Shown: one piece after another, positions 5,309 through 14,129 of the stretch
Numbering within the stretch: the stretch's first letter is position 1
Layout: every line of letters starts with the position of its first letter
Virus record (IMG/VR): IMGVR_UViG_2681813154_000004
Source of the DNA: a virus
Taxonomy: Duplodnaviria; Heunggongvirae; Uroviricota; Caudoviricetes
Length of the DNA: 37,535 bases
Reading direction: 5' to 3' (one strand)
Program-made: the position numbers and the translations under genes
The notes under the pieces: generated by a model
Told to the model about the DNA's origin: nothing
The model's database searches: none
Seen by the model: only the letters and a program-made list of their open reading frames with translations

Positions 5309-6239
5309 ATTAACCGGCTATGTATGGGATGGTTGCGCTGCGTCAGGCATGAAATTATCCAGCGTGGCAATTATGGCCCGCCTGGCTGATTTCAGTAATG
5401 ACGAAGGTGTGTGCTGGCCATCAATTGAAACCATTGCCCGTCAGATTGGCGCGGGGATGAGTACCGTCAGAACGGCTATCGCACGGCTGGAAGCAGAAGG
5501 CTGGTTAACGCGTAAGGCGCGTCGCCAGGGTAACCGCAATGCGTCGAATGTTTATCAGCTTAACGTTGCGAAGCTTCAGGCAGCGGCATTTTCTCAACTG
5601 TCAGATTCTGACCCGTCAAAATCTGACGCATCAAAATCTGACCCGTCAAAATTTGATGCGTCGAAATCTGGCAAAAAAGCGGGTTTTCACCCGTCAGAAT
5701 CTGGCGGGGATCCGTCAGTAAAATCAAAACATGATCCGTCAGATAAAAAAACTTCTCGTCCGGACGCTTCGCAACCGGACACGCAGACGGCTGAACAGGA
5801 GTTTTTAACTCGCCATCCTGATGCGGTTGTATTCAGCCCTAAAAAGCGCCAGTGGGGAACGCAGGATGATTTGACCTGCGCACAGTGGCTCTGGAAAAAA
5901 ATCATCGCCCTGTACGAGCAGGCCGCCGAATGTGACGGCGAGGTGGTTCGTCCCAAAGAACCGAACTGGACAGCCTGGGCAAACGAAATTCGCCTGATGT
6001 GTGTGCAGGATGGTCGTACTCACAAACAAATCTGCGAGATGTACAGCCGCGTCAGCCGCGATCCGTTCTGGTGCCGTAACGTGCTCAGCCCGTCGAAGCT
6101 GCGGGAAAAATGGGATGAGCTTTCCCTGCGCTTATCGCCGTCCGTCAGCACGTACACAGAAAAACGCGAAGACCCGTACTTCAAAGCCAGTTACGACAAC
6201 GTGGACTACAGCCAGATCCCGGCAGGATTCAGGGGGTGA
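5298..6239 (+). CDS. Replication initiation protein, lambda O-like (YfdO-like), N-terminal HTH
   Basis: N-terminal winged-helix-like region, central SDxSK pentapeptide repeats encoded by tandem DNA repeats (iterons), position after cII. Confidence 0.8.
   Translation: MSTKLTGYVWDGCAASGMKLSSVAIMARLADFSNDEGVCWPSIETIARQIGAGMSTVRTAIARLEAEGWLTRKARRQGNRNASNVYQLNVAKLQAAAFSQLSDSDPSKSDASKSDPSKFDASKSGKKAGFHPSESGGDPSVKSKHDPSDKKTSRPDASQPDTQTAEQEFLTRHPDAVVFSPKKRQWGTQDDLTCAQWLWKKIIALYEQAAECDGEVVRPKEPNWTAWANEIRLMCVQDGRTHKQICEMYSRVSRDPFWCRNVLSPSKLREKWDELSLRLSPSVSTYTEKREDPYFKASYDNVDYSQIPAGFRG
5598..5750 (+). repeat. Candidate replication origin iterons (15-bp tandem repeats, core CCGTCAAAA) inside the replication gene
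   Basis: TCTGACCCGTCAAAA / TCTGACGCATCAAAA / TCTGACCCGTCAAAA / TTTGATGCGTCGAAA at 5607-5666, then degenerate CCGTCAGA copies and an A-rich tract. Confidence 0.55.
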
Positions 6240-6241
6240 TC

Positions 6242-6730
6242 ATGAGTCTTTTGAATGAAGTTCAGAAATACATTGAAGCCCATCCGGGCTGTACTTCCGG
6301 AGATATTGCGGATGCTTTTGCCGGTTACTCACGGCAGCGCGTTCTGCAGTCAGCAAGCAAGTTACGTCAGAGTGGGCGTGTGGCTCACCGTTGTGAAGGA
6401 GATACACGCAGACATTTCCCGCGCCTGACTGAGAGAGCGCAGGAACCGGAACCACAACCAGTTCGTGAAACCAGACCTGTGCGCAATTTCTATGTCGGCA
6501 CTAACGATCCCCGTGTGATTTTGTGCCTGACCCGCCAGGCGGAAGAACTGGAGTCCAGGGGCTTATACCGTCGTGCTGCAACGGTGTGGATGGCGGCATT
6601 CCGTGAAAGCCACTCCCAGCCAGAACGAAACAATTTTCTGGCGCGTCGTGAGCGGTGCTTACGGAAAAGCAGCAAGCGCGCTGCATCGGGTGAAGAGTGG
6701 TATCTGTCAGGGAATTACGTGGGGGCTTAA
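6242..6730 (+). CDS. Regulatory protein with PerC-like C-terminal region
   Basis: ATG at 6242 after AGGGGG; C-terminal LESRGLYRRAATVWMAAF...RERCLRKS resembles the PerC/Pch motif from memory. Confidence 0.5.
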   Translation: MSLLNEVQKYIEAHPGCTSGDIADAFAGYSRQRVLQSASKLRQSGRVAHRCEGDTRRHFPRLTERAQEPEPQPVRETRPVRNFYVGTNDPRVILCLTRQAEELESRGLYRRAATVWMAAFRESHSQPERNNFLARRERCLRKSSKRAASGEEWYLSGNYVGA

Positions 6731-7383
6731 TGAGTAATAAATATTGCCAGGCGCTGGTGGAACTGCGGAACAAACCAGCCCATGAACTGAAGGAAGTGGG
6801 CGATCAGTGGCGCACGCCGGACAACATTTTCTGGGGAATTAACACCCTGTTTGGCCCGTTTGTTCTGGATCTGTTCACTGACGGTGATAACGCCAAATGT
6901 GCCGCGTATTACACGGCGGAAGACAACGCGCTGGCGCATGACTGGTCAGAACGTCTTGCGGAGCTTAAAGGTGCTGCCTTTGGTAATCCCCCATACAGCC
7001 GCGCCAGTCAGCATGAGGGGCAATACATCACCGGCATGCGTTACATCATGAAACATGCCAGTGCCATGCGTGATAAGGGCGGGCGCTATGTTTTCCTGAT
7101 CAAAGCTGCCACCAGCGAAGTGTGGTGGCCGGAAGATGCAGATCATATTGCTTTTATTCGCGGGCGTATTGGTTTTGAACTGCCTGTCTGGTTTATCCCG
7201 AAAGACGAGAAGCAGGTACCGACAGGAGCTTTTTTCGCTGGTGCTATTGCTGTTTTTGACAAGACCTGGAAGGGACCGGCAATCAGCTACATCGGGCGCG
7301 ATGAACTTGAGGCATGTGGTGAGGCGTTTCTGGCGCAGGTTCGCCAGCAGGCGGAAAAACTGGTCAGGGAGATGGCGGCATGA
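6730..7383 (+). CDS. Phage DNA N6-adenine methyltransferase (Dam-like)
   Basis: NPPY catalytic motif (GNPPYSRA); ATG overlaps the upstream stop (TAATG). Confidence 0.85.
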   Translation: MSNKYCQALVELRNKPAHELKEVGDQWRTPDNIFWGINTLFGPFVLDLFTDGDNAKCAAYYTAEDNALAHDWSERLAELKGAAFGNPPYSRASQHEGQYITGMRYIMKHASAMRDKGGRYVFLIKAATSEVWWPEDADHIAFIRGRIGFELPVWFIPKDEKQVPTGAFFAGAIAVFDKTWKGPAISYIGRDELEACGEAFLAQVRQQAEKLVREMAA

Positions 7384-9935: not shown

Positions 9936-10313
9936 ATGCGTGATATTCAGATGGTTCTTGAGCGTTGGGGAGCGTGGGCGGCTAATAATCATGAAGATGT
10001 GACCTGGTCGTCCATTGCCGCCGGTTTTAAGGGATTAATTCCTTCAAAAGTAAAATCTCGCCCACAATGTTGTGACGATGACGCGATGATCATTTGCGGG
10101 TGCATGGCCCGTCTGAAAAAGAACAACAGCGATTTGCATGATTTATTGGTGGACTATTATGTCGGCGGCATGACTTTTATGGCGCTTGCACGTAAGCATG
10201 GGCGATCTGATTGTTGGGTTGGCAGGATGCTCCAGAAAGCTGAGGGCGTAGTGGAGGGTATGCTGATGGTGTTGGATCTCCGATTGGAGATGGATGCTGA
10301 TTGTTCGAAATAA
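9936..10313 (+). CDS. Late-gene antiterminator Q (QuuD-like)
   Basis: [33 protein letters not shown]...[17 protein letters not shown] matches the DLP12 Q family from memory; ATG at 9936 with GGAG RBS. Confidence 0.85.
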
Positions 10314-10319
10314 TTAAAG

Positions 10320-10440
10320 GAAAAGTTGCTGTCTGATTGTCATTAGTCTAACATTTTAAATGTTGGAATCGCAACGTAGTTATTACCATATAACAGCTTG
10401 TTTCCTGATTTAGCCAGCCTCCCCAAAGGCTGGTTTTTTT
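10320..10440 (+). promoter_or_regulatory. Candidate late promoter/qut region ending in a tR'-like intrinsic terminator
   Basis: Hairpin CCAGCCT-CCCCAA-AGGCTGG plus T7 at about 10412-10440; possible -35/-10 TTGCTG (10326-10331) and TAACAT (10349-10354), weak. Confidence 0.5.
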
Positions 10441-10468
10441 CTAATAAGTATTATTTCGGGTAGGGATT

Positions 10469-10993
10469 TTATTGTTTAACCCATAATAATTCATTGACAT
10501 TGAATCCCAACTTTTGAGCGGTTCGCACATAGTCTGCTTTTACTTTATCTGGAATAGTTGGGGTCCTTGCCAGAATCCATAGGTATTCTCTGTTCGGACC
10601 ACTGACAAGAGCATACTTATACTCATCATCCAGTTTGATTACATTATAGCCACCATAGAAGGGGCCAAAAAACGAAACCTTCAATGCTGCAGTTTTAGTA
10701 TCTCCAGTAAAGTATGCTTTACCTTCGCTCTCGCTCCATTTATTTTTCGTTGGATCGTATCCACGGTTAAGTACACGAATCCCTCCGTCGTTCCGTTTTC
10801 CATAAGTAGCGCTGACCTGTTCCAGATCACGTTCGAACCGGTTCTCGAGGCGAGCTATTTCATACCATTTTCCGAGGTAGCGGTTGGCGTCAAAATTTGT
10901 AATCGGCTGCACACCTTTAGGTGGTGTCGGGGCCTTACATGCTATAAGAGTGAAAGAGAGTGCAATGCCAGTCAACACAGGCCATAACTTCAT
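10469..10993 (-). CDS. blc: Outer-membrane lipocalin lipoprotein, Blc-like
   Basis: Signal peptide plus lipobox (LIAC), YLGKWYEIARLENRFE and FFGPFYGGYNVI lipocalin motifs; divergent from E. coli Blc. Confidence 0.85.
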   Translation of the reverse strand: MKLWPVLTGIALSFTLIACKAPTPPKGVQPITNFDANRYLGKWYEIARLENRFERDLEQVSATYGKRNDGGIRVLNRGYDPTKNKWSESEGKAYFTGDTKTAALKVSFFGPFYGGYNVIKLDDEYKYALVSGPNREYLWILARTPTIPDKVKADYVRTAQKLGFNVNELLWVKQ

Positions 10994-11185
10994 AATAAAT
11001 CCTGTACTTTTGATAGTTGAGAGTAAGTATGAAAGATAGATGATTACGACCGATCACTTAAAGAACTTTCATACTATATTAGGAATAGTCCATAACAGAA
11101 AAATTGTCAGTGATGACGCCAGAAAGGCAATTTATTCCGTGCACTACACAGTTTATGTGTTAATGAATTAGTCAAGGGGGAGAAT

Positions 11186-12145
11186 ATGATAAAAAAACCT
11201 GTGATTGGAATCAGCGGTTGTTTGGCCGGTTCTGCTGTTCGTTTTGATGGTGGTCACAAAAGAGCTGACTTTTTAATGGACAAATTAGTGGAATGGGTAA
11301 CATTCAGACCAGTATGTCCGGAAATGGCTATAGGGCTGCCAGTTCCGCGTCCTGCTCTACGTCTTGTGCGCTCGACGCAAGGAAATATACGGATGTGTTT
11401 CAGCCACGACCAGAATGAGGATGTGACAGAGAGAATGACAGAGTTTAGTCGTTCTTATATGGACAAATTAAAGGATGTATCGGGGTTTGTGGTTTGTGCT
11501 AAATCTCCCAGCTGTGGCATGGAGCGCGTGCGTGTCTATGATGAAAATGGTAATCGAGGTCGTAAAGATGGAGTGGGACTATTTACGAGTACTTTGATGG
11601 AAAAGTTTTCCTGGCTACCGGTTGAAGAGGATGGGCGATTACATGATCCAGTGCTTCGTGAGAATTTTGTTGAAAGAGTTTTTGCTTTGCATGAGCTCAA
11701 TCACCTTTACAAGGAGAAATTATCAAGAAGAGAGTTATTAGCTTTTCATAGTCGTTATAAGCTTCAGTTGTTGGCGCATAGTCAGGCAGGCTATAAAGAT
11801 ATGGGACCATTTGTGGCTGCAATACACGAGTGGGCGGACCTTGAATCATACTTTGAGGTGTATCGTGATAAGCTGATGGCGATTCTCAGAAAACCTGCAT
11901 CACGTAAAAATCACACGAATGTGCTGATGCATATACAGGGGTATTTTAGTAACTACTTAAGTACACGCCAGCGTAAAGAGTTGAGCGAGGTTATACTTAA
12001 CTATCGTTCTGGCACATTACCTCTTCTTGCGCCGTTGACTCTGCTGAAGCATTATCTGGGTGAGTATCCTAATGATTACTTGCTTACACAGAATTACTTC
12101 GATCCCTATCCGGACGAACTGGCTCTAAGACTGATGGTAAATTAA
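11186..12145 (+). CDS. YbgA-like protein (DUF523/DUF1722 family)
   Basis: IGISGCLAGSAVRFDGGHK...PVCPE N-terminal motif typical of the family; strong GGGGGAG RBS. Confidence 0.7.
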   Translation: MIKKPVIGISGCLAGSAVRFDGGHKRADFLMDKLVEWVTFRPVCPEMAIGLPVPRPALRLVRSTQGNIRMCFSHDQNEDVTERMTEFSRSYMDKLKDVSGFVVCAKSPSCGMERVRVYDENGNRGRKDGVGLFTSTLMEKFSWLPVEEDGRLHDPVLRENFVERVFALHELNHLYKEKLSRRELLAFHSRYKLQLLAHSQAGYKDMGPFVAAIHEWADLESYFEVYRDKLMAILRKPASRKNHTNVLMHIQGYFSNYLSTRQRKELSEVILNYRSGTLPLLAPLTLLKHYLGEYPNDYLLTQNYFDPYPDELALRLMVN

Positions 12146-12496
12146 TTGTATGCGATATCATCCAAAAGGATGAGTTCCTGCATGCAGGATATTTACAATC
12201 GTAAAAACTACACTATGATACCCAGAGTGTCAGTTTGTATAAAAACTCTGTTTACGCTGAAGAAACAATTGAGATGCAACTTAAAGTTGGTAAACATGCC
12301 AGTCAAAATATATAATATTATGATTCCACGCAGCTATATATAATATAACAGATTGGTTTAATAATTTGTCTTTGTGAGTTAAATACATAATTTTATACTT
12401 GTGATGCAATGAAATTTTCCTTATTGTTGAACTTGCGAATATTGATTTTCCACCTATACTTACCTGGTGTAACCCCAATGATATCAGGTGGATAAT

Positions 12497-13228
12497 ATGC
12501 CATACATATGTTCTATCATTTTGGTGTTGAACTCGTTTGATGTCCGAATTGGTAAAGAAGATATTTTGTTTAAAAAAGGAAGTGCTGTTCTCATTGATTA
12601 CAATTTAAAAGATTTTTTTTCATCAAATATAGATCATGTAATGATCGTAGATGTTGAAGAGAAAACAGTTAATGATTTCTTTAAAAGCAACACACTCTCA
12701 CCTTTTTCTGTAAGAAGGTTTTATCCGGCATACTTGATGGTGGAATGTGAAGATTTTTCATTGTTAAAGAACTTGATTGCATGCTTGAATTGTGATGGCA
12801 GAACTGTGGATTTTGTTAGAAATCAAATATCACTTGCATGTCTTGCTATCTTATCTTCAGAGAAAATAGTGCAAAGTTTTTTATTTGGATGTCTTAATAG
12901 TTTAGGAAGTAAAGTTAAGGCTATTATTCACACGGATATATCTGCAGCATGGAGACTTTGTGATATATCTTCAAGACTGTATCTGAGTGAAAGTCTGTTA
13001 AAAAGAAAATTAAAGCACGAAGGCTTATCATTTAGTAAGTTAATTCTTGAAGAGCGAATGGTGATGGCGGAAAGGTTATTAAGCTACAATTTATATTCTG
13101 TTGGAAAAGTTGCTGAGATATGCGGTTATGAAAACACGTCATATTTTGTGAGTGTTTTCAGAAGATATTTTGGTGTTCCTCCCCATCAATATTCATCAAG
13201 ATTTTTTTTAGAAAAAGACATGATGTAA
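12497..13228 (+). CDS. AraC/XylS-family transcriptional regulator, AppY-like
   Basis: C-terminal AraC HTH (VGKVAEICGYENTSYFVSVFRRYFGVPPHQY); very AT-rich gene with AT-rich upstream region; ATG at 12497 after GGTG. Confidence 0.8.
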   Translation: MPYICSIILVLNSFDVRIGKEDILFKKGSAVLIDYNLKDFFSSNIDHVMIVDVEEKTVNDFFKSNTLSPFSVRRFYPAYLMVECEDFSLLKNLIACLNCDGRTVDFVRNQISLACLAILSSEKIVQSFLFGCLNSLGSKVKAIIHTDISAAWRLCDISSRLYLSESLLKRKLKHEGLSFSKLILEERMVMAERLLSYNLYSVGKVAEICGYENTSYFVSVFRRYFGVPPHQYSSRFFLEKDMM

Positions 13229-13289
13229 CGTGATGCGTTTTAATGATTTTGTAATTTTCGTATTTGATAATTGTATGATGCTTTCAGCT

Positions 13290-13320
13290 ACGCCAGAATA
13301 ATCGCTGGCGTTTTTCTTTT
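13290..13320 (+). terminator. Intrinsic terminator after the AraC-like gene
   Basis: ACGCCAG-AATAATCG-CTGGCGT followed by TTTTTCTTTT. Confidence 0.6.
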
Positions 13321-13416
13321 TGAATAGATGTTCAAGCCTTACGCTAATGTAACTTCTATACCTTTCCTCTTCGTTCCGAACCGTGTACACCATCCGTTAT
13401 TTGCGGAGGTGAGGCT

Positions 13417-13632
13417 ATGAAATCTATGGATAAGTTAACAACGGGCATTGCCTACGGCACCTCCGCAGGCAGTGCTGGCTACTGGTTTTTACAGCTGCTC
13501 GATAAAGTCACGCCCTCACAGTGGGCAGCAATAGGTGTGCTGGGTAGCCTGGTATTTGGCCTGCTGACGTACCTGACAAACCTTTATTTCAAGATTAAAG
13601 AAGATAAGCGCAAGGCTGCGAGAGGTGAATAA
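13417..13632 (+). CDS. Pinholin, phage 21 S21-like, dual-start (MKSM)
   Basis: 71 aa; [26 protein letters not shown]...; GGAGGTGAGG RBS. Confidence 0.85.
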
Positions 13633-14129
13633 TGCCTCCATCATTACGAAAAGCCGTTGCTGCGGCTATTGGTGGCGGGGCTATTGCTATAGCATCTGTG
13701 TTAATCACTGGCCCAAGTGGTAACGATGGTCTGGAAGGCGTCAGCTACATACCATATAAAGATATCGTTGGTGTATGGACTGTATGTTACGGGCATACCG
13801 GAAAAGACATTATGCTCGGTAAAACGTATACCGAAGCAGAATGCAAAGCCCTCCTGAATAAAGACCTTGCCACTGTCGCCAGACAAATTAACCCGTACAT
13901 CAAAGTCGATATACCGGAAACAACGCGCGGCGCTCTTTACTCGTTCGTTTACAACGTTGGTGCTGGAAATTTCAGAACATCGACACTTCTTCGCAAAATA
14001 AACCAGGGCGATATCAAAGGCGCATGTGATCAGCTACGGCGCTGGACATACGCTGGCGGTAAGCAATGGAAAGGGCTGATGACTCGCCGTGAGATTGAGC
14101 GTGAAGTCTGTTTGTGGGGGCAACAATGA
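13632..14129 (+). CDS. SAR endolysin (lysozyme, GH24) with N-terminal signal-anchor-release domain
   Basis: Gly/Ala-rich weakly hydrophobic N-terminus followed by E...D...T catalytic residues ([21 protein letters not shown]). Confidence 0.85.

Follow-up and report, generated by a model that had tools for sequence, protein, structure and literature searches.

Which genes sit between the antiterminator gene Q and the lysis genes of a temperate phage, where do they come from, and under what control would they be expressed? We address these questions for IMG/VR record IMGVR_UViG_2681813154_000004, a stretch of 37,535 nucleotides from a virus of the Caudoviricetes (this whole stretch is the window in what follows), in which a segment low in guanine and cytosine (GC), positions 10314-13416, separates Q from the holin gene. 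A sequence-only reading had described the segment as an island with genes for a Blc-like lipocalin, a YbgA-like protein and a regulator resembling AppY, bounded by intrinsic terminators. All three open reading frames (ORFs) are present between Q and the holin gene in the ORF list of the window, and the drop in GC content and both terminators are found as that reading placed them. The region is low-GC, swappable moron cargo at the Q-holin junction. It probably forms a composite cassette, made up of a captured lipocalin-RudS pair and a regulator of the PatE/YdeO/AppY type, within the late operon that Q controls in a prophage of lambdoid type.

Results

Limits and composition of the cargo

The lipocalin gene (10469-10993, minus strand, 174 amino acids) runs antisense to late transcription; the genes for RudS (11186-12145, plus strand, 319 amino acids) and for a PatE-like AraC/XylS regulator (12497-13228, plus strand, 243 amino acids) lie on the late-operon strand. 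The GC content of positions 10314-13416 is 38.1%, against 51.0% in the remainder of the window, and the GC content of third codon positions (GC3) is 0.40 for the lipocalin gene, 0.39 for rudS and 0.27 for the AraC-type gene, against 0.43-0.54 for the Q, holin and endolysin genes. Homology with sibling phages that carry a porin gene stops at 10295, in the last codons of Q, and restarts at 13406, 11 bp upstream of the holin ATG (blastn). What was swapped, 10296-13405, thus extends a little beyond the limits first drawn for the island, taking in the last Q codons as well as the first terminator.

Siblings such as ev243, as well as the K-12 prophage DLP12, hold a minus-strand nmpC/ompD porin gene in this slot, between Q and lysis genes that are 87-88% identical to those of the window; the position is also that of the stx genes in Shiga toxin (Stx) phages, as the sequence-only reading had proposed. 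Three properties of a moron are present: the site is occupied in some close phages and not in others, the base composition differs, and the cargo has a downstream terminator of its own (13290-13320). The cassette is neither universal, the porin-carrying siblings being without it, nor phage-like in codon usage, with GC3 between 0.27 and 0.40. A Pfam scan detected no toxin or porin gene in the cassette, and the window contains no Rfam match and no tRNA gene, the latter sought because tRNA genes are found upstream of stx in Stx phages.

RudS and the lipocalin

Pfam places a DUF523/TudS domain (PF04463; the DUF523 match is also named 2-thiouracil desulfurase) at residues 7-149 of the middle protein and a DUF1722 domain (PF08349) at residues 192-309, each at about 1e-40. 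The sequence-only reading had both domains right, and its name for the protein falls short: K-12 YbgA (b0707, 169 amino acids) has DUF1722 only and aligns with the phage protein in its C-terminal half, at 49% identity. The fusion of TudS with DUF1722 defines RudS, which turns tRNA 4-thiouridine (s4U) into uridine (Jamontas et al. 2024, PMC11417400). "RudS_vir", assayed in that study as a tRNA 4-thiouridine desulfidase, is gp66 of phage 1H12 (H3V29_gp66, our locus L002); it is 93% identical to the protein of the window, which in turn is 100% identical to the copy in phage IdasGreatGrand. Essential residues have been defined by mutagenesis in RudS_KT, three of them cysteine ligands of a [4Fe-4S] cluster (PMC11417400). 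Cys12, Cys44, Cys110, Glu46, Arg55, Ser107 and Ser109 are all present in the window protein and invariant among the phage alleles. The middle gene encodes a full TudS-DUF1722 RudS, a predicted [4Fe-4S] tRNA 4-thiouridine desulfidase.

All RudS variants cut s4U when overexpressed, RudS_vir with an activity that appeared below that of other orthologs, and stand-alone YbgA had no effect on tRNA s4U (PMC11417400). The same paper states that E. coli is without RudS, which is true of K-12 and BL21 and untrue of about 19% of complete genomes. BL21(DE3), the "RudS-free" background of the published assays, holds a remnant of the cassette: in a decayed, Qin-like prophage (NZ_CP081489.1, locus L026, 3623-5019), Q, an intact lipocalin gene and a 49-codon stub of rudS are joined to O-antigen genes (wbbD). 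In K-12 (locus L005, 3093-4511) the DUF1722-only ybgA adjoins the H-repeat transposase gene ybfD on the 3' side of the latter and has phr downstream, whereas other Enterobacterales have a full 319-residue RudS; E. coli ybgA might be what is left of a truncated RudS gene. Two single-sequence RudS clusters, P0002 (403 amino acids) and P0006 (500 amino acids), are fusions to GGDEF (PF00990) or DUF3833; the GGDEF fusion is an E. coli protein, 99% identical over its RudS part. Both fusions may be artefacts of gene calling or frameshifts.

The first cargo protein matches Lipocalin_2 at 1.1e-43 (Pfam) and scores 314.5 bits on the NCBIfam model of the Blc subfamily, for which the cutoff is 267; its best matches in the Protein Data Bank are the Blc structures 3MBT, 1QWD and 2ACO. 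The N-terminus read from the translation, MKLWPVLTGIALSFTLIAC19-K, contains a lipobox (LIAC) with Cys19, and the residue at +2 is Lys, not Asp. Under the lipoprotein sorting rule, Lys at this position directs a lipoprotein to the outer membrane. The protein is 59% identical to K-12 Blc, and 73-82% identical to RudS-linked lipocalins of Enterobacter, Leclercia, Serratia and a Cedecea-like genome; among the loci listed, lipocalins encoded next to ampC, as E. coli blc is, are all 59-61% identical to it. We regard it as a predicted outer-membrane lipoprotein of a RudS-linked clade, distinct from ampC-linked Blc, a placement that appears to be new as far as we could find. Both the lipocalin and the middle protein are clearly diverged from the E. 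coli chromosomal versions, in agreement with the sequence-only reading.

The nearest RudS proteins from species other than E. coli are encoded on the chromosomes of Citrobacter, Serratia, Enterobacter and Klebsiella; they are 319 amino acids long and 70-77% identical. The contigs that encode the nearest lipocalins repeat one layout, in which the lipocalin gene is divergent to a gene for a MerR/MlrA-type regulator of 241-242 amino acids that heads an operon with RudS as its last gene. The operon is short in Serratia rubidaea; it includes one transthyretin-like gene in Enterobacter, Leclercia and contigs L018 and L019; and it is long in the Cedecea-like genomes, where SnoaL, SDR, FAD oxidase, DUF1365, CFA-synthase-like, DUF2878, 175-amino-acid and DUF3833 proteins are encoded ahead of RudS. 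A lipocalin alignment was also used to search species-representative genomes, a sample of the diversity and not a census, and the flanks of the loci listed were then scored. Eight of these loci, phages aside, have a lipocalin that matches the phage protein at 73% identity or more. Each of the eight encodes RudS (71-73%) on the strand opposite to the lipocalin gene and contains a palindromic operator, ACTTACACA-N12-TGTnnAAGT, and in seven of them the MerR gene lies 112-120 bp from the lipocalin gene. RudS is near none of the listed Enterobacterales lipocalins of about 57-62% identity, the canonical Blc clade, and in eight loci of that clade ampC lies 92-116 bp from the lipocalin gene.

We conclude that the lipocalin-RudS pair was probably captured as a unit from a MerR-controlled chromosomal locus and then compacted, because in all the close chromosomal relatives listed RudS lies near the lipocalin gene in the same divergent orientation. 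A pattern search found no MerR-type operator in the window, in locus L001 or in locus L002. Three MerR proteins were compared by tblastn with the cassette and with the window as a whole in search of a remnant of the MerR gene; none was found, the one weak match falling in the helix-turn-helix region of the AraC-type gene. With merR, the intervening genes and the operator gone from the phage, RudS would be uncoupled from its native control, and MerR-adjacent RudS genes have been linked to light-responsive regulation involving ultraviolet A (UVA) (PMC11417400). What phage and chromosomal loci have kept in common is the element AATATA(G/C)TA(T/C)GA, about 75-80 nt upstream of the lipocalin ATG; a candidate -10 hexamer of the lipocalin gene, TATAGT (minus strand, 11073-11078), lies in the 192-bp divergent region between lipocalin and rudS (10994-11185).

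The neighbours of RudS in the Citrobacter operon (a 175-amino-acid protein and DUF3833) were considered as diverged lipocalins and dropped for want of any similarity. Lipocalins of 51-54% identity occur in a Nitrospirota (L081) and a gammaproteobacterial (L098) metagenome-assembled genome (MAG), with RudS homologs (42-43%) at distances of 39 bp and 2.3 kb, so the linkage recurs far outside Enterobacterales; these distant neighbours hint at a functional link between the two proteins. A further MAG, assigned to 'Candidatus Nanosynbacter', has a 2,113-bp contig (JARKOR010000135.1, L028) with a lipocalin 99% identical to that of the phage, and is almost certainly represented there by a mis-binned E. 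coli prophage fragment.

Transcription signals and expression

The start of the late operon is marked by Q (9936-10313, plus strand, 125 amino acids, ATG at 9936), a QuuD-like protein that matches Phage_antitermQ at E = 2.5e-51 (Pfam), is 88% identical to QuuD of DLP12 and matches the Q21 structures 6P18 and 6JNX at E = 1.9e-8 (phmmer); it is a distant member of the Q21 family. A canonical Q cassette consists of the Q gene, the promoter PR', a sigma-dependent pause element, a terminator and the late genes (bioRxiv 10.1101/651190). In the window Q, a terminator and the lysis genes (holin of the P21 S type, 13417-13632, then endolysin, together 13417-14129, plus strand; Pfam) stand in this order, and PR' and the pause element are candidates only. 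The candidate PR', TTGCTG-17 nt-TAACAT (10326-10354, plus strand), was read from the sequence; it scores below the threshold of the promoter scan, and is kept in IdasGreatGrand and nearly so in 1H12. The -10-like hexamers TGGAAT (10364-10369) and TATAAC (10389-10394), both on the plus strand, are candidate pause elements. The 9-mer ATATAACAG occurs twice in the window, where 0.18 occurrences are expected, and both copies are in the cassette, one between Q and the first terminator (10388-10396) and one upstream of the AraC-type gene (12343-12351). It is among the few strings kept after Q in the otherwise non-homologous segment of DLP12 (locus L006, about 1400-1420) and ev243, and is also present in locus L003. 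The 9-mer could belong to a late promoter or to a pause element.

The first terminator (10412-10440, plus strand) comprises a hairpin at 10412-10435, with a nine-pair stem of which five pairs are G-C, and a T-run; the fold of 10355-10445 has an energy of -24.1 kcal/mol (z = -4.0). The second (13290-13320, plus strand), between the AraC-type gene and the holin gene, has its hairpin at 13290-13311, again followed by a T-run, and is kept in 1H12 and IdasGreatGrand; this hairpin by itself is modest (z = -1.2). Two terminator-like sites in 3.8 kb are not above the shuffle mean of 2.9, and the information is therefore carried by their placement and by the strength of the first hairpin rather than by their number. 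Both hairpins that the sequence-only reading took for the bounds of the island exist, but the first is better interpreted as a tR'-type terminator that belongs to the phage than as an island edge, because it follows Q directly, is oriented with the late operon and has a U-tract on the plus strand only.

A transcription model can be proposed from this arrangement. In the lysogen, the late promoter would be constitutively active, but its transcripts would end at the tR'-like terminator (10412-10440). The lipocalin gene, and possibly rudS and the regulator gene, would be expressed from promoters of their own, and the terminator at 13290-13320 would shield the lysis genes from cargo transcripts. 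Upon induction, RNA polymerase modified by Q would pass both terminators, so that rudS and the regulator gene would share a transcript with the lysis genes, and the lipocalin gene would be transcribed antisense. Given the position of the cargo between tR' and holin, any Q-dependent transcript that reaches the holin gene must include rudS and the AraC-type gene.

The same position raises a different possibility, namely that the cassette, or at least RudS, is auxiliary to the lytic cycle, late RudS erasing s4U and sustaining translation during virion production. Prophage induction is often triggered by ultraviolet light, and near-UV light forms an s4U8-C13 crosslink in tRNA, as a result of which translation slows and guanosine tetraphosphate (ppGpp) rises. 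The place of rudS, which follows the Q/tR' region and precedes holin on the late strand, fits such a role, as do the want of a convincing sigma-70 promoter directly upstream of rudS, the deletion of its native light-linked MerR control and the shortening of the UVA growth delay by RudS overexpression (PMC11417400). Sibling phages, however, manage with a porin in place of RudS; the antisense orientation of the lipocalin gene relative to late transcription speaks for its expression in the lysogen; and a terminator before holin, such as that at 13290, is typical of a moron transcribed in lysogens. We treat a lytic role as a tentative option, less probable than the composite moron cassette.

The AraC-type regulator

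The third gene is preceded by an AT-rich leader (12146-12496, 31.6% GC) with several sigma-70-like hexamer pairs. Its ORF can start at 12488 or 12497; ATG 12497, the start used in RefSeq and phage annotations, is preceded by the Shine-Dalgarno sequence AGGTGG. The protein matches HTH_18 (1.1e-14) and HTH_AraC (2.1e-11), with a double helix-turn-helix at its C-terminus (Pfam). The likeness to AppY noted by the sequence-only reading holds at the level of the family, identity being 32% to AppY and 32% to YdeO in alignments spanning residues 1-233/237; a closer relative is ECs_0287 of the Sakai prophage Sp1, 54% identical over residues 1-235. Scores on the NCBIfam models are 127 bits for YdeO (cutoff 348) and 85 for GadX (cutoff 500), and the regulator is not an equivalog of YdeO, GadX or AppY.

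ECs_0287 is the only AraC-family gene in Sp1, which is located at thrW. This prophage is presumably the same as OI-8/CP-933H. A review places PatE (z0321) on OI-8, and the acid-resistance genes gadE/hdeA are activated by PatE, PsrB and AppY, each encoded on a prophage (PMC10877973, PMC10057817). From its location, ECs_0287 is probably PatE, and the regulator of the window would feed into the gadE/hdeA network as reported for PatE, PsrB and AppY. Regulation of the cassette by its own regulator, through motifs shared between the region upstream of the AraC-type gene and the lipocalin-rudS intergenic region, was considered and abandoned, since only short two-copy matches were found.

A homolog search recovered a small regulator family, nearly all of it from E. 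coli and its prophages. Relatives of 64% and 56% identity stand alone, each immediately following a Q gene that belongs to another Q family, and one of them directly upstream of holin without lipocalin or RudS. Because of this, and of its GC3 of 0.27, the AraC-type gene appears to be an independent moron of the Q junction, a second module beside the lipocalin-RudS pair. In phage phiSTEC1575-Stx2k (locus L010, 3501-4214) an AraC-type gene of 39% identity lies between Q and the tRNA-stx2 genes; regulators of this lineage also accompany toxin cargo at the Q junction.

A more ambitious interpretation joins the two modules functionally. The cassette would be a rewired, phage-borne module of near-UV tolerance, taken from a MerR-controlled photostress locus, freed of its light-linked regulator and put under Q-dependent late transcription, in which UV induction also triggers the erasure of s4U, so that translation continues while virions are made, and the regulator ties the module, together with acid resistance, to stationary-phase or acid cues in lysogens. 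If true, this would be the first case of a temperate phage manipulating host tRNA modification within its induction programme. We consider it speculative and rather unlikely.

The sequence-only reading, on the other hand, amounts to three independently acquired genes, Blc-like, YbgA-like and AppY-like, with effects on host regulons and on the tolerance of envelope stress. The family assignments at the domain level are right, the base composition is foreign and Blc is a family of outer-membrane lipoproteins. Yet all the close chromosomal relatives examined have lipocalin and RudS side by side, the middle gene encodes RudS and not a DUF1722-only YbgA, and the regulator is nearer to the inferred PatE (54%) than to AppY (32%), so that independent acquisition is already partly refuted and we regard it as improbable. 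Envelope stress tolerance is also less specific than the evidence allows, the pair coming from a MerR-controlled locus of a kind tied to light and near-UV stress (PMC11417400).

Distribution and maintenance

A megablast search recovered the whole cassette in 12 of 137 matching phage records, at 98% identity in IdasGreatGrand and 90% in the 1H12/Lambda_ev group; more than 100 further phage records share only Q and the lysis genes with the window. At least 80% of the cassette is present in 992 of the 5,426 complete E. coli genomes, the lipocalin-RudS pair in 1,047 and the AraC-type gene in 986, co-carriage being stable in about 18-19% of these genomes. The backbones that carry it are myovirus-tailed, siphovirus or decayed prophages: the window, a prophage of the SfV/KpLE1-like kind, encodes an HK97-type head, a tail sheath and gtrABC, and 1H12 and IdasGreatGrand are lambda-like siphoviruses. 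The three proteins each match a full-length PHROG family of unknown function, the lipocalin phrog_2809 and RudS phrog_3275. Two small ORFs of the cassette, 11040-11171 and 12146-12343, have no PHROG match and were treated as non-coding; one of them carries an annotation in IdasGreatGrand.

The novelty implied by the sequence-only reading was overstated. The cassette is already contained in public phage and genome annotations and is not a new kind of system; RudS_vir is published, the regulator is of a known class, and blc is a listed moron in more than half of the intestinal lambda-like phages of one study (Mathieu et al. 2020, PMC6969025). What appears not to be described in the literature consulted is the joint origin of lipocalin and RudS, their loss of control and the construction of the cassette from two modules.

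The Q-lysis junction is a known mosaic hotspot. The cassette could be neutral, hitch-hiking DNA or a decaying remnant at a site prone to recombination, and copies in decay do exist, among them SRY149, where IS1 (an insertion sequence) replaces the AraC-type gene, several others with IS3 or IS1 insertions, and the rudS stub of BL21(DE3). Between the window and the 1H12 allele family, however, the ratio of non-synonymous to synonymous substitution rates (dN/dS) is 0.07 for the lipocalin gene, 0.10 for rudS and 0.27 for the AraC-type gene, at synonymous divergences (dS) of 0.20-0.35, comparable with those of flanking phage genes. All three genes are under purifying selection, kept and not decaying. 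The cassette is moreover intact in about 1,000 genomes on unrelated prophage backbones, and the catalytic residues of RudS are invariant, which makes neutral carriage very improbable. An anti-phage defence or superinfection-exclusion island is hardly credible: exclusion and defence genes are often held at the Q-lysis junction and other moron sites, and an outer-membrane lipoprotein could block a receptor as other prophage lipoproteins do, but none of the three proteins matches a PADLOC model and all have clear housekeeping-type homologs in chromosomal, non-defence contexts.

The window contains further accessory genes. A second lysogenic-conversion module, for O-antigen glucosylation, lies at 34054-36856 (minus strand) and consists of gtrA (120 amino acids, GtrA_DPMS_TM), gtrB (306 amino acids, Glycos_transf_2) and a gtrC-like gene (506 amino acids, no Pfam match), adjoined by an integrase fragment (37118-37492, minus strand). 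A PerC-family regulator gene (6236-6730, plus strand) is followed by a Dam-type adenine methyltransferase gene (6697-7383); the prophage of WP8-S18-ESBL-07, elsewhere 97-99% identical, has no match to positions 6733-7380 and carries a LexA-like gene in their place, so that this region is another swapped accessory slot.

Discussion

The observations are best accommodated by a composite moron cassette in which a lipocalin-RudS pair, captured together, was placed beside an independently mobile regulator of the PatE/YdeO/AppY type. Under this probable reading, RudS would lower tRNA s4U and shorten the near-UV growth delay, a predicted function missing in K-12, which has the DUF1722 half only, and in BL21, which has the rudS stub.

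Several points weigh against this reading. The linkage of lipocalin with RudS is drawn from a sample of species representatives and not from a census, and the nearest chromosomal loci are only 71-82% identical, too distant to name an actual donor. ECs_0287 is equated with PatE from its location, and an identity of 54% is no guarantee of a shared regulon. A comparison of upstream regions found no motif that connects the regulator with the lipocalin or rudS promoters. Sites returned by the promoter scan are no more numerous than in shuffled sequences, so that promoter calls are at the level of consensus only. RudS_vir was assayed by overexpression only, with a desulfidation apparently weaker than that of its orthologs (PMC11417400).

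With about 19% of complete E. coli genomes carrying a prophage RudS, differences between strains in tRNA s4U, near-UV growth delay and the stringent response may be determined by prophages. The membership of both proteins in a conserved lipocalin-MerR-RudS locus suggests a functional link between them that goes unmentioned in the Blc and RudS literature consulted. The value of these results lies in annotation and in the groundwork they provide for simple experiments.

Among known systems, the nmpC/ompD porin moron of DLP12 and related lambdoid phages occupies the same slot between Q/PR'-tR' and holin, and the porin gene, like the lipocalin gene of the window, lies on the strand opposite to late transcription. 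The stx operons of Stx phages occupy this slot as well, and rudS and the AraC-type gene resemble stx in lying on the late strand. In both systems the cargo itself differs from that of the window. A close counterpart is RudS_vir of 1H12, the same gene in the same position of the same three-gene cassette, also encoding 319 amino acids; it belongs to another allele family (dS about 0.30) and to a siphovirus, as opposed to the contractile-tailed prophage of the window. The cassette, the linked lipocalin and the loss of MerR control are not discussed in the paper on RudS_vir (PMC11417400).

The chromosomal relatives resemble the cassette in part. K-12 Blc (b4149) shares fold family, lipobox and length with the phage lipocalin, but belongs to the ampC-linked clade, which among the loci listed never has RudS adjoining. 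K-12 YbgA is homologous to the DUF1722 half of RudS only and is without the catalytic TudS domain. The loci of Enterobacter, Leclercia, Serratia rubidaea and the Cedecea-like genomes have a lipocalin of the same clade and a RudS of 71-73% identity in the same divergent orientation; they differ in having the MerR gene, the operator and the intervening genes, where the phage copy instead has an AraC-type gene downstream.

The regulator, finally, shares with PatE, PsrA/PsrB and AppY the character of a prophage-borne, AT-rich AraC/XylS regulator with two helix-turn-helix motifs in the C-terminal domain. PatE and AppY are encoded near the tail-fibre or att end of their prophages, whereas the gene of the window and its 56-64% relatives come immediately after Q. 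The cassette would accordingly add a third class of location, directly after Q, to those of the prophage-borne regulators of the PatE/PsrB/AppY type.

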